DNA from: Myxococcota bacterium
Lineage (GTDB): Bacteria > Myxococcota > B64-G9
DNA length: 64,000 nt
Direction: 5' to 3'
NCBI GenBank assembly: GCA_035453905.1
Contig: DAOTDZ010000014.1
Span: forward strand, 150,452-214,451
This document shows positions 46,812 to 49,694 of this stretch, one piece after another. Each line of letters starts with the position of its first letter. The stretch's first letter is position 1. The position numbers and the translations under genes are program-made. The notes under the pieces are model-generated. The model worked only from the letters and a program-made list of their open reading frames with translations. It was not told where the DNA came from and did not search any database.

Positions 46812-48023
46812 TCAGTTGGAAGGATCCAGCTTGGACAGGTCCCCCGCGGGGACCGCGGGCGGCGGCGTGGCCGCGGGCGGGCCTGGCGGCGGAGAGGACC
46901 GCGGGCGCCGCCGTCCCCACAGGCCGGTCACCTTGGTCCCGTAGTGCCGCAGATCCATGCGCAGCAGCACGAAGATGGCGAGCACCAGCCCGAGGAAGAC
47001 GCCCCAGACCAGGAACATGTTGTAGCCCATGGCCGCGTACACGTCGCCCGTGCCCACCCGCAGCGGCGCGCCGGCCTTGGCCAGGCCGTAGGTCTTGGCG
47101 ATCTTCTCCACGAACACCAGGTGGATGACCGGCACACCGTTGCGGGACATGCGGGTGATGACGGAGTCCCGGATGCGCTCCGAGGTCGGCAGCTCCTTGT
47201 TCACGCCCGGCAGGAACATCTTCTTGATCATGGACGAGCCCACCGAGCCCGCCCCGCCGCCGACGTTCACGTAGGCCGCGATGGGCTGGCCGCCGGCCTC
47301 CTCGCGGTAGATGTTCATGCGCAGATCGAAGGACGAGCTCAGGTCGGGCGGGTCGATCAGCTCGACCCCGTTGCGCTTGATGGCCTCGCGCAGCATGCGC
47401 ACGCCCTCGGCCGGCAGGCCCACCCCGCGGTCCTGCTCGCCGCCCAGGGAGGCGGCCACCGTGCGGTTGTGGATCACGCCGTTCTCGAACAGCAGCCGCT
47501 CCATGTCGAGCCAGGTCAGCTCCGGATCGTTGGCGCCCCAGTTGGAGCCCGAGGTGGAGGTGATGATCACCGGCCGGAGTTTCAGCGTCTCGGCCGCCAC
47601 CAGGGCGGCCAGGTTGAGCGAGGGGAAGGAGCCGCTGAAGGCCATCGCCACCACGTCGCCTTCCTTGAGCTTGGCGCGCTTGTACATCTGCACCAGGACC
47701 GCGGCGAAGTTGGGGTTGGCGGCGGTCTGCTTGGCGGCCAGGATGCCGGTGTTGGAGGTGATCGGGGTGAGGCCGGTGCCGATCATCCCGGTGGCCAGGG
47801 GGTCGTGCTCGGTGTCGATGCGGCCGAAGATGGAGATGCGCGCCCGCTTGATCACCTCGATGCCGCGGGCCATCAGCTTGGCCGCCTGCACCTTCTCCTT
47901 GTAGTAGGGCTTGCGCGTCTTCTGCGGCAGGCCCTCCACCAGCATGTAGCCGATGATGGACAGCAGCGCCACGAGGGCCAGGACCGGACGCGAGGCCTTG
48001 CCAGGCCGCCACATCATAGCCAT
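46812..48023 (-). CDS. Poly-gamma-glutamate system accessory membrane protein (PgsA/CapA-replacing family, recalled as TIGR04332-like)
   Basis: Immediately downstream of pgsC and overlapping it. N-terminal TM helix. The family assignment is from memory of PGA loci that lack pgsA. Confidence 0.55.
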   Translation of the reverse strand: MAMMWRPGKASRPVLALVALLSIIGYMLVEGLPQKTRKPYYKEKVQAAKLMARGIEVIKRARISIFGRIDTEHDPLATGMIGTGLTPITSNTGILAAKQTAANPNFAAVLVQMYKRAKLKEGDVVAMAFSGSFPSLNLAALVAAETLKLRPVIITSTSGSNWGANDPELTWLDMERLLFENGVIHNRTVAASLGGEQDRGVGLPAEGVRMLREAIKRNGVELIDPPDLSSSFDLRMNIYREEAGGQPIAAYVNVGGGAGSVGSSMIKKMFLPGVNKELPTSERIRDSVITRMSRNGVPVIHLVFVEKIAKTYGLAKAGAPLRVGTGDVYAAMGYNMFLVWGVFLGLVLAIFVLLRMDLRHYGTKVTGLWGRRRPRSSPPPGPPAATPPPAVPAGDLSKLDPSN

Positions 48024-48478
48024 TCGTACATCTCCCCGCCGTAGATCATGATGAGCAGCAGCTTGACCAGCACGCCCGAGGTCAGCAGGGTGGCGGAGGT
48101 CTCCACCACGCCCTGGCGGTCGAGCCACATCGCCACCAGGCCCGGGATGATGTAGCCGATGGCGTGGAGCTGGTAGGTCTGCCCGCCGAGGTCGATCTGC
48201 ATGAAACCGCGGAACAGCATACCCAGCATGAAGCCCACCAGGATGATCACCACCGTGCGACGCCGGCCGAAGAGGATCATGAACGTGCTCATGACCCGCA
48301 CGATCAGGTAGGCCACCACCCCGAGCACGAGCGTCATCAGCACGGCCACCGGGTTGGTCAGGTTGAGCGCGATGTAGCCTGGCACCACCATGCCGCCCGC
48401 GGCCAGCCCGAGGGTCTCCGAGAAGACCAGGCTGACCACCAGGCCGATGCCGATGGCGTTGGGGATGAGGTCTTCCAA
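48014..48478 (-). CDS. pgsC: Poly-gamma-glutamate biosynthesis protein PgsC/CapC
   Basis: TTG start with AAGGAG 9 nt upstream. LEDLIPNAIGIGLVVSLVFSETLGLAAGGMVVPGYIAL closely parallels Bacillus CapC (MFGSDLYIALILGV...AGLVVPGYL). Confidence 0.85.
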   Translation of the reverse strand: MEDLIPNAIGIGLVVSLVFSETLGLAAGGMVVPGYIALNLTNPVAVLMTLVLGVVAYLIVRVMSTFMILFGRRRTVVIILVGFMLGMLFRGFMQIDLGGQTYQLHAIGYIIPGLVAMWLDRQGVVETSATLLTSGVLVKLLLIMIYGGEMYEWL

Positions 48479-48494
48479 GGGGTTCTGCTCCTTG

Positions 48495-49694
48495 TCAGGC
48501 TGCCTGCTCGGGCGTGGCCGCCCGATTCTCGAAGTACTCGATGATCTCGTTGCCGCCCGCACCGATGTTGCCCATGCCGAACACCAGACCGCGCTTGCCG
48601 ATCTGCGCGATGGCGCGCTCGAACACCCGCGCCGGGTCGGCCCGCTCCATGTCGATCAGCCGCTCCGGGTCCAGGCCGGCCTTGAGCGCCGCCTCGAGCG
48701 CCAGGCGGGTGCCGGTGCCGGTGAACAGCGAGCAGTCGACCCCCTGCATGCGGTGAATCATCTCGCCGAGCTGCAGGGAGCGGTGGGGCCTGTCGGCGCG
48801 GCAGTTGAGCATGACCACCCGGCGCAGCTCGCCCGGGAAGAGCTTCAGGATGCGGCCCTGCCAGATGGCGAGCGTGGAGTCCGGATCGTTGGCCGCCAGG
48901 GCGTTGATGAAGCTGATGTCCTTGGCGTAGAAGGCCAGGCGGATGATGCGCAGCACGCCGATGTCCGGCGCGCAGCGCCACATGCCCTCCAGGGCCACCC
49001 GCGGATCGATGCCGAACTGCTTGCAGGTGCACAGGGCCACCGCCACGTTGTCCGGGTGCTCGACGTAGGAGAAGCCGCGCAGCATCTCCTCGGTGACCCC
49101 CTCGGACTCCGGGGTGGCGACGTGCAGGCGCGAACCCTCCCGCTCGCACACCTGGCGCATGATGCCGGTCAGCTCCGGATCGGTCTCGCCGGTGACCAGG
49201 TCGGCCTTGCGCGGCACCGTGCCGCACAGCGCCAGCGTCAGGTGCCGGACGGTCGGCCCCATCACGTCCAGGTGGTCCGCCCGGGCGTTGGTGATCACCC
49301 CCACCCGGGAGCGCAGCATGGTGTGCTCGCACAGGTGCTGGTAGCGCGGGTTCAGCGCCATGCACTCGGCCACCAGGGCCTGGGCCTCCCGGCGGGCGGT
49401 GACCGCCAGGGCGCGCACCTGCTCGATGATGTTGGCGCGCCCCTGGCGTTGGATGCTGTACTCGCTGCCGTCCTCGAGGATCATGCGCGGCCGGGAGCCG
49501 GTCGTCTTGGCGCAGGTGCGGATGCCACCCGCGCGCATGCCCGCGGCGATCAGCCGGGTGACCGAGGACTTGCCCCGGGTGCCGTTGACGTGCACCCGGA
49601 TGGGCACCCTGGCCTGCGAGCGCCGGAGCCCGAGGTACTCCCAGCTGAAGGCGAGCACCAGCAGCCCGAGGATGACCACCAGCACGATGAGCAC
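48495..49694 (-). CDS. pgsB: Poly-gamma-glutamate synthase PgsB/CapB (Mur-ligase-like amide ligase)
   Basis: GTG start with GGAGG and a 5-nt spacer. Colinear with B. subtilis PgsB (VNGTRGKSSVTRL, MNCRADR, NDPDST motifs). Confidence 0.9.
   Translation of the reverse strand: MLIVLVVILGLLVLAFSWEYLGLRRSQARVPIRVHVNGTRGKSSVTRLIAAGMRAGGIRTCAKTTGSRPRMILEDGSEYSIQRQGRANIIEQVRALAVTARREAQALVAECMALNPRYQHLCEHTMLRSRVGVITNARADHLDVMGPTVRHLTLALCGTVPRKADLVTGETDPELTGIMRQVCEREGSRLHVATPESEGVTEEMLRGFSYVEHPDNVAVALCTCKQFGIDPRVALEGMWRCAPDIGVLRIIRLAFYAKDISFINALAANDPDSTLAIWQGRILKLFPGELRRVVMLNCRADRPHRSLQLGEMIHRMQGVDCSLFTGTGTRLALEAALKAGLDPERLIDMERADPARVFERAIAQIGKRGLVFGMGNIGAGGNEIIEYFENRAATPEQAA

Follow-up and report, generated by a model that had tools for sequence, protein, structure and literature searches.

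A cassette of three genes, pgsB-pgsC-pgsW, was identified at positions 46812..49694 on the minus strand of a 64-kb stretch of Myxococcota DNA (the whole of this stretch is referred to below as the window). The locus is, in our judgement, probably a chromosomal and vertically inherited one that encodes a PgsA-less membrane poly-gamma-glutamate (PGA) synthase of two-membrane bacteria. The three genes are co-directional and fill the interval exactly, from the stop codon of the third gene to the start codon of pgsB. The first-pass annotation of this DNA had proposed a complete PGA locus composed of pgsB, pgsC and an accessory gene, and its presence was confirmed, as all three proteins scored above the curated cut-offs of their families; "complete" holds for a cassette of the PgsB-PgsC-PgsW type and does not extend to production of the polymer. 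Families were assigned with NCBIfam hidden Markov models with curated cut-offs, and Pfam was used as a second library.

PgsB and PgsC match the Bacillus polymer synthase subunits

PgsB scored 409.8 bits against the equivalog model TIGR04012 (cut-off 222.7, E = 8.6e-123), with residues 4-388 covering positions 2-380 of the 380 in the model, that is, its full length. PgsC scored 125.9 bits against TIGR04011 (cut-off 96.45) and 118.8 bits against the CapC family of Pfam (PF14102). The sole Pfam domain detected in PgsB was Mur_ligase_M, with 29.6 bits. The cap operon of Bacillus anthracis pXO2 was used as the direct comparison set for CapB, CapC and CapA. Of these, the experimentally characterised CapB and CapC shared 35% identity with PgsB over 391 amino acids (aa; E = 5e-74) and 38% with PgsC over 130 aa (E = 1e-24), respectively. 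The P-loops of PgsB (NGTRGKSSVTRLI) and CapB (NGIRGKSTVTRLI) were aligned with the pattern NG(T/I)RGKS kept, the P-loop NGTRGKSS of PgsB being located at residues 37-44, and a second shared motif, DH(L/M)DVMGPT, was found as ADHLDVMGPT in PgsB and EDHMDVMGPT in CapB. The colinearity with the Bacillus CapB and CapC proteins claimed at first pass was borne out by these identities and by the retention of the catalytic motifs.

Hydropathy analysis placed one transmembrane helix at the N-terminus of PgsB (residues 1-19, Kyte-Doolittle peak of 2.61) and four to five hydrophobic segments in PgsC, which has the appearance of a small polytopic membrane subunit. One helix has been reported for PgsB homologues, and a Bacillus-type topology is consistent with PgsB and PgsC of the window (PMC6029982). 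Searches of the PDB by sequence gave no relevant match for either protein. Judged by its sequence, PgsB is a predicted membrane-anchored, ADP-forming amide ligase of the Mur-ligase superfamily.

The third protein belongs to the PgsW family

The third protein scored 326.7 bits against TIGR04332, "poly-gamma-glutamate system protein" (cut-off 100), with positions 3-302 of the 307 in the model covering residues 50-352 of the 438-aa long reading frame. The RefSeq gene symbol for the family of this type is pgsW, and the assignment agrees with the earlier proposal of an accessory family from PgsA-less systems. The protein had also been described as not CapA-like, and the searches were in line with this description. 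It matched no Pfam family, including PF09587 (PGA_cap), and none of 49 PgsW family members matched PF09587 at E ≤ 1. When the profile of these 49 sequences (alignment A1, which reaches relatives down to 42% identity and has the window sequence as its first row) was compared with pXO2 CapA, hhalign returned a probability of 0.12%. On these two results, the candidate identity of the third protein as CapA/PgsA was ruled out.

Two transmembrane helices were detected in PgsW by hydropathy, at approximately residues 14-32 and 336-354, flanking a soluble stretch of about 300 aa; the tail after the second helix is basic and then Pro-rich. An AlphaFold2 model built from A1 (mean predicted local distance difference test score of 88.7, predicted template modelling score of 0.81) reproduced both helices, placed between them an alpha/beta domain in which strands and helices alternate, and left the tail disordered. 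Comparison of the model with solved structures in Foldseek gave no match at E ≤ 1e-3, with template modelling scores below 0.2, the PDB yielded no hit to either the sequence or the profile, and PgsW showed no recognisable transferase or hydrolase fold. As modelled, PgsW is a protein of confidently predicted structure that has no analogue among solved structures. Basic residues flank the helices (RMDLRHYGTK...RRRPR), so that, by the positive-inside rule, both ends of the protein would be cytoplasmic and the domain between them periplasmic.

Twenty-five residues of PgsW were invariant in A1 (K44, D74, G79, G82, K98, N103, P104, N105, A108, S132, F133, P134, S160, G163, P167, W171, D173, E175, G194, N253, G255, G262, K267, G273 and P298), and most of them fall just past predicted beta-strands, at their C-terminal ends. 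The C-terminal ends of beta-strands are the usual site of the ligand-binding crevice in such folds, and the invariant polar residues at these positions suggest a ligand-binding or catalytic crevice in PgsW. The core motifs D-x3-(S/T)G-(M/L)IG, NPxFAA, SxSFPxLN and GAN were kept in the PgsW protein of Cetobacterium, which is 30% identical over 327 aa.

Several architectural variants of PgsW were noted. A conserved P-(E/Q)-(P/Q)-M-(V/I) C-terminus follows the second helix in 62 of the 80 homologues compared (L002-L081) and may be a cytoplasmic docking site; proteins of the window's clade end without it, in Pro/Ser-rich tails (46812..46930 in the window). In the relatives P0204, P0205, P0215, P0227 and P0254 (670-734 aa), a further hydrophobic segment is present, and the C-terminus is extended by about 300-370 aa that have no Pfam match. 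Since the P0204-type architecture was seen in four database members, it was regarded as a real variant. Two fusions were found as singletons. One of them (P0186) joins PgsC to PgsW and is probably a frameshift artefact, because its CapC match ends at position 85 of the 119 in the model and is followed by unrelated sequence. In the other (P0251), PgsW is fused to a C26 peptidase domain of the gamma-glutamyl-hydrolase type; it was seen on one contig only and is possibly artefactual.

Distribution and co-evolution of the cassette

A search of a word-indexed sequence collection returned 870 PgsW homologues at E ≤ 1e-5. Many of them were already named "poly-gamma-glutamate system protein", including proteins from metagenome-assembled genomes (MAGs) labelled Myxococcota, Polyangiaceae, Desulfobacteraceae and Spirochaetota. 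An exhaustive profile search gave 1,595 clusters (50% identity) at E ≤ 0.001 and 1,303 at E ≤ 1e-10. Gene order was compared in the best 80 of at least 546 stretches with a PgsW relative, one genome being taken per GTDB species. All 80 loci came from MAGs, of which 29 carried Myxococcota-type labels, 11 the generic label "Deltaproteobacteria" and 21 a Planctomycetota label; the remaining labels include Desulfobacteraceae, Spirochaetales, Nitrospirales, Chitinophagales, Ignavibacteriales and Verrucomicrobiales. The pgsC gene directly preceded pgsW in every one of the 80 loci, and pgsB was located ahead of pgsC in 75. Among the five loci lacking pgsB, three were cut by contig ends, and two (L005 and L006) were truly devoid of it within 6 kb.

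The identities of PgsB, PgsC and PgsW to their counterparts in the window co-varied over 70 loci (r = 0.87-0.89), which shows, at the level of sequence divergence, that the three proteins apparently co-evolve. Clustering of open reading frames (ORFs) over the 80 loci did not reveal a conserved fourth gene, as nothing else recurred in more than about 16 loci, and the sampled neighbours of the cassette encoded kinases, TerC, regulators and similar proteins that are not polyglutamate-related.

The two loci without pgsB are from Myxococcales MAGs of the window's clade, with pgsC-pgsW present at approximately 3200..6000; even with a threshold of E ≤ 10, pgsB was not detected in the 6 kb that precede the pair. 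The place of pgsB is taken in L005 by a 721-aa ORF on the opposite strand, which has no Pfam match. The pgsB gene was either relocated or lost in these genomes.

The spread of the locus among relatives, proposed as a check at first pass, proved to be wide, with the same gene order in related loci. The novelty implied by the first-pass annotation was overstated, since many Myxococcota MAGs contain the cassette and have it annotated by name; the cassette type is already catalogued in curated models, in the RefSeq symbol and in the annotation of these MAGs. The accompanying remark that PGA is not a recognised myxobacterial trait was in line with the literature surveyed, in which no link between the polymer and myxobacteria was found; as judged by titles and abstracts, none of the publications naming gamma-PGA together with Myxococc- concerned synthesis by a myxobacterium.

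Comparison with known systems

The cassette resembles the capBCADE operon of B. anthracis and the pgsBCAE operon of B. subtilis in the homology of PgsB and PgsC over their full length, with the P-loop and the DHxDVMGPT motif retained, in the order of B followed by C, in membrane topology, and in a gene, directly downstream, for a third membrane protein that has a large domain outside the cytoplasm (as predicted for PgsW). In contrast to the Bacillus operons, the window has no equivalent of CapD, CapE/PgsE or PgdS nearby, and its third protein is unrelated to CapA. The host of the window has two membranes, so that what happens to the product once it has crossed the inner membrane would differ from the situation in Bacillus.

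Among Gram-negative bacteria, a three-gene cassette is also found in Francisella tularensis (capBCA), in which the product of capA bears the same name as TIGR04332, "poly-gamma-glutamate system protein" (PMC5362203), membership of the family being indicated by this annotation name only. In the literature surveyed, it was the only PgsW-type cassette with genetic data. Unlike the host of the window, Francisella is a gammaproteobacterial intracellular pathogen, and its locus, a determinant of virulence, plays no part in the O-antigen capsule (PMC4688374, PMC2897883). The pgsB-pgsC-pgsW loci annotated in RefSeq on plasmid p1 of Cetobacterium somerae and in Fusobacterium spp. have the same gene order and family assignments as the window. 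However, the PgsW protein of Fusobacteriaceae is 319 aa long and lacks the long cytoplasmic tail, and the locus is preceded by ggt and a succinylglutamate-desuccinylase-like gene, neither of which is present in the window.

Proposed mechanism and nature of the product

In Bacillus, PgsB and PgsC constitute the ATP-dependent polymerase, and transport or stimulatory roles have been assigned to PgsA and PgsE (PMC5751247). B. subtilis carrying only pgsBC still makes much polymer, with an altered D/L composition, and PgsA is thus dispensable (PMC6029982). This sufficiency makes a different third subunit plausible, and by analogy the PgsB-PgsC pair of the window should be enough to polymerise glutamate through gamma linkages at the inner membrane. 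The tight packing of the cassette, with a gap of 16 nucleotides (nt) followed by an overlap of 10 nt, supports the reading of the locus as a PgsA-less PGA synthase.

We propose the following mechanism, in which the polymer made, the membrane topology and the function of PgsW are inferred. PgsB would be anchored by its single N-terminal helix, with the Mur-ligase-like domain in the cytoplasm, where, as suggested by Bacillus biochemistry, ATP would activate the gamma-carboxyl group of the chain end and glutamate would be added. PgsC would complete the active complex and provide the path across the inner membrane. PgsW would occupy the position of the Bacillus PgsA/CapA protein, with its alpha/beta domain in the periplasm between the two transmembrane helices, and would probably receive, hold or process the emerging gamma-glutamyl chain on the periplasmic side.

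Several observations weigh against this reading. No PgsW-type locus could be tied to a demonstrated polymer; in Francisella, virulence requires capBCA, the capsule is retained in mutants of capB and capC, and the product is unknown (PMC4688374, PMC2897883). Fusobacterium nucleatum is the one Gram-negative bacterium reported to make the polymer (PMC3815933), and it was absent from the 89 homologues of a Fusobacteriaceae PgsW, which include Cetobacterium and two unnamed Fusobacterium species. No gene for CapD/gamma-glutamyltransferase, CapE, a hydrolase or outer-membrane export was found in the window, where tblastn searches with CapA, CapD and CapE were negative, and no export, CapD/E or hydrolase gene was conserved beside the cassette in the 80 loci. 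A route by which a polymer would leave the periplasm is not apparent from these genes. In addition, a scan of 45400..51300 gave no promoter or terminator consensus, so that the operon boundaries were drawn from spacing alone.

A link of PgsW cassettes to the producer F. nucleatum was dropped on the basis of the 89 homologues. A 5'-nucleotidase/metallophosphoesterase-like protein encoded about 43 kb from the cassette (Table 1) gave a sub-threshold match to PGA_cap (26.5 versus 27 bits), which probably reflects the calcineurin-like fold that it has in common with PgsA, and not a real PgsA.

The alternative that survives best accepts that PgsBC forms gamma-glutamyl linkages and holds that they end up in something other than a high-molecular-weight polymer, whether free or capsular; short periplasmic chains, or chains attached by PgsW to peptidoglycan, lipid or glycan, are the candidates. 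It arises because no PgsW cassette was tied to a polymer and no gene for outer-membrane export or anchoring travels with the cassette, and the Francisella locus, of the same type by annotation, is consistent with it as a virulence locus with no detectable capsule role. The invariant polar residues K44, D74, K98, N103, N105, S132, S160, D173, E175, N253 and K267 suggest an enzyme or a specific binder, not a passive scaffold, and the singleton metagenomic fusion of PgsW to a C26 domain is a hint in favour of this alternative. However, PgsB and PgsC score as equivalogs of polymer synthase subunits, PgsW was not recognised as having the fold of a transferase or a hydrolase, and the fusion comes from a single, possibly artefactual contig. 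We regard this alternative as unlikely. In its fuller form, which we put forward tentatively as a speculation, PgsW would be an enzyme or a polymer-handling module of unmatched fold, and PgsW cassettes would yield not a Bacillus-style capsule but a gamma-glutamyl polymer that is periplasmic or attached to the envelope and has a physiological role of its own.

Origin of the cassette

Returning to the preferred reading of the locus as a vertically inherited PGA synthase, its origin was evaluated from codon usage, phylogeny and gene neighbourhood, with the 26 other genes of the window serving as the background for codon usage and GC content. The codon-usage correlations of pgsB (0.987), pgsC (0.924) and pgsW (0.955) were within the range of the background (0.970 ± 0.030, minimum 0.871), as was the GC content at third codon positions (GC3; 0.97, 0.95 and 0.96, respectively, versus 0.947 ± 0.043). 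In a neighbour-joining tree of PgsW, the window was placed in a clade of eight, the other seven members of which are MAGs labelled Myxococcales or Deltaproteobacteria, with 60-71% identity; sequences of Planctomycetota, Polyangiaceae and Desulfobacteraceae each clustered apart. The closest MAGs share the flanks of the cassette, including PBP2 (60-68% identity), a thioredoxin-domain gene and a gene for a protein resembling biotin carboxyl carrier protein (BCCP). All named relatives of the RecA protein of the window were MAGs labelled Myxococcales or Deltaproteobacteria by their depositors, and one relative genome has, on a 218,441-bp contig, a RecA 86% and a PgsW 81% identical to those of the window. 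The labels of the closest PgsW and named RecA relatives agree with the myxobacterial-type host proposed at first pass. The cassette is adjoined by mreB, PBP2, rodA and speA. From the codon usage, the syntenic flanks, the taxon-coherent tree, the RecA evidence and the core-gene neighbourhood, we conclude that the cassette appears to be a chromosomal lineage trait and not a recent import.

A recent horizontal acquisition, with the cassette as an island, would be compatible with the span of the family labels over Myxococcota, Planctomycetota, Desulfobacterota, Spirochaetota, Nitrospirota, Bacteroidota and Verrucomicrobiota, with the splitting of Myxococcota-labelled sequences over several separate clades of the tree, and with the GC content of pgsC (0.643 versus a window mean of 0.712). 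However, the low GC content of pgsC is due to its hydrophobic composition (GC content of 0.41 at second codon positions), and the typical codon usage and GC3, the core-region setting, the synteny of the flanks in the closest MAGs and the absence of adjoining mobile-element genes make such a transfer very improbable. The comparison of GC content and codon usage with the flanks, which had been suggested as a check for acquisition, thus gave no sign of transfer.

A decaying, non-functional remnant is even harder to credit. Such decay could be suspected from the same-clade loci L005 and L006, which keep pgsC-pgsW without pgsB within 6 kb, but in the window all three frames are intact and of full length with respect to the models, all invariant family residues are present (the window sequence being the first row of A1), ribosome-binding sites are in place, and GC3 is as usual for the expressed genes of this genome. 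Finally, the idea that pgsB encodes a folylpolyglutamate synthase, a Mur ligase or a cyanophycin-type ligase in a locus unrelated to polyglutamate, for which the generic nature of its lone Pfam domain could be cited, was effectively refuted as far as family scores can tell, because FolC (28 bits, cut-off 162.65), MurE (19.7 bits, cut-off 257.3) and cyanophycin synthetase (15.6 bits, cut-off 850) were all far below threshold when the PgsB model was well above it, the likeness to CapB spans the full length of PgsB, and a genuine CapC homologue comes directly after pgsB.

Layout of the locus and its neighbours

The features of the locus and of its surroundings are listed in Table 1. The ATG codon of pgsW sits within the last codons of pgsC, and the overlap between the two genes noted at first pass is a putative translational-coupling arrangement; the same overlap was present throughout the window's clade (L002-L007 and L067). 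The three consecutive frames are marked by a third-position GC content of 0.95-0.97, the GC content of the window being about 0.71. An independent gene call, on a public Logan contig with an identical PgsB, gave proteins of the same lengths (399, 154 and 403 aa).

Table 1. Coordinates and properties of the cassette genes and of other features of the window.
Feature	Position	Strand	Length	Properties
pgsB	48495..49694	-	399 aa	GTG start; GGAGG ribosome-binding site 6 bases upstream; GC3 0.97
pgsC	48014..48478	-	154 aa	TTG start at 48478; AAGGAG ribosome-binding site; GC3 0.95
pgsW (third gene)	46812..48023	-	403 aa	ATG start at 48023; GC3 0.96
pgsC/pgsW overlap	48014..48023	-	10 nt	ATGGCTATGA; GGGGAG upstream; read from sequence
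BCCP-like gene	49726..50166	-	146 aa	EAMKME biotinylation motif; 31 nt upstream of pgsB
ORF convergent on pgsW	46061..46810	+	249 aa	No Pfam match
Vault-like gene	51112..53376	-	754 aa	Three genes upstream of pgsB
5'-nucleotidase/metallophosphoesterase-like gene	1928..3844	-	638 aa	
Two genes for large secreted or surface-type proteins	17265..24711	+	1,397 aa; 1,095 aa	
Low-GC stretch	~12000..15000			GC 0.52-0.60

The BCCP-like protein encoded upstream of pgsB matched PF00364 with 59 bits and has a Pro/Ala linker, and all of its scores against NCBIfam models of the BCCP type were below the cut-off. Its gene precedes pgsB in only four of the 80 loci (L002, L003, L007 and L067), those of the four closest MAGs, and no other carboxylase subunit was seen near it. 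The gene is probably not part of the system, although this is uncertain. On the other side of the cassette, the 249-aa ORF on the plus strand ends 1 nt before the stop codon of pgsW, and the cassette is therefore the last part of its transcription unit. The C-terminus of the protein encoded by this ORF (...SDE(D/E)LLT(K/Q)FLL...) resembles the tail of a 179-aa ORF that is convergent on pgsW in L005.

Other parts of the window also contained features of note. The vault-like gene, on the same strand as the cassette, encodes a homologue of the eukaryotic major vault protein (MVP), with Pfam matches to MVP_shoulder (106.7 bits) and Vault_3. In a phmmer search against the vault chains of the PDB (E = 2.7e-41), its residues 179-742 matched MVP residues 236-839. 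Elsewhere, it was found beside the cassette only on L001, which is identical to the window. The low-GC stretch (compared with about 0.71 for the window) is possibly an island of foreign origin. No Pfam match was obtained for six ORFs in 11802..15039, which comprise four main ORFs and two overlapping ORFs on the minus strand, and an Rfam scan of the whole window detected no RNA family, including no rRNA in the low-GC stretch. The two adjacent genes at 17265..24711 encode, in order, a VIT/von Willebrand A/TPR protein and a protein with many cysteine repeats of the Dictyostelium type (Dicty_CTDC, 160 bits).

Significance

The literature surveyed treats PGA essentially as a Bacillus trait. The distribution presented here indicates that uncultured Myxococcota and Planctomycetota commonly possess genes for the synthesis of a gamma-glutamyl polymer, which they appear to have inherited vertically. 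A specialist is unlikely to be surprised by the genes themselves, and their annotation alone adds little. The interest lies in PgsW, a conserved membrane protein without a structural analogue, and in the product that such a cassette would make in bacteria with two membranes. Should the unlikely case of an envelope-attached polymer in Myxococcota, Planctomycetota, Francisella and others prove true, it would explain the long-standing puzzle of the Francisella capBCA product. A tractable environmental system could help to settle what PgsW cassettes make in two-membrane bacteria.

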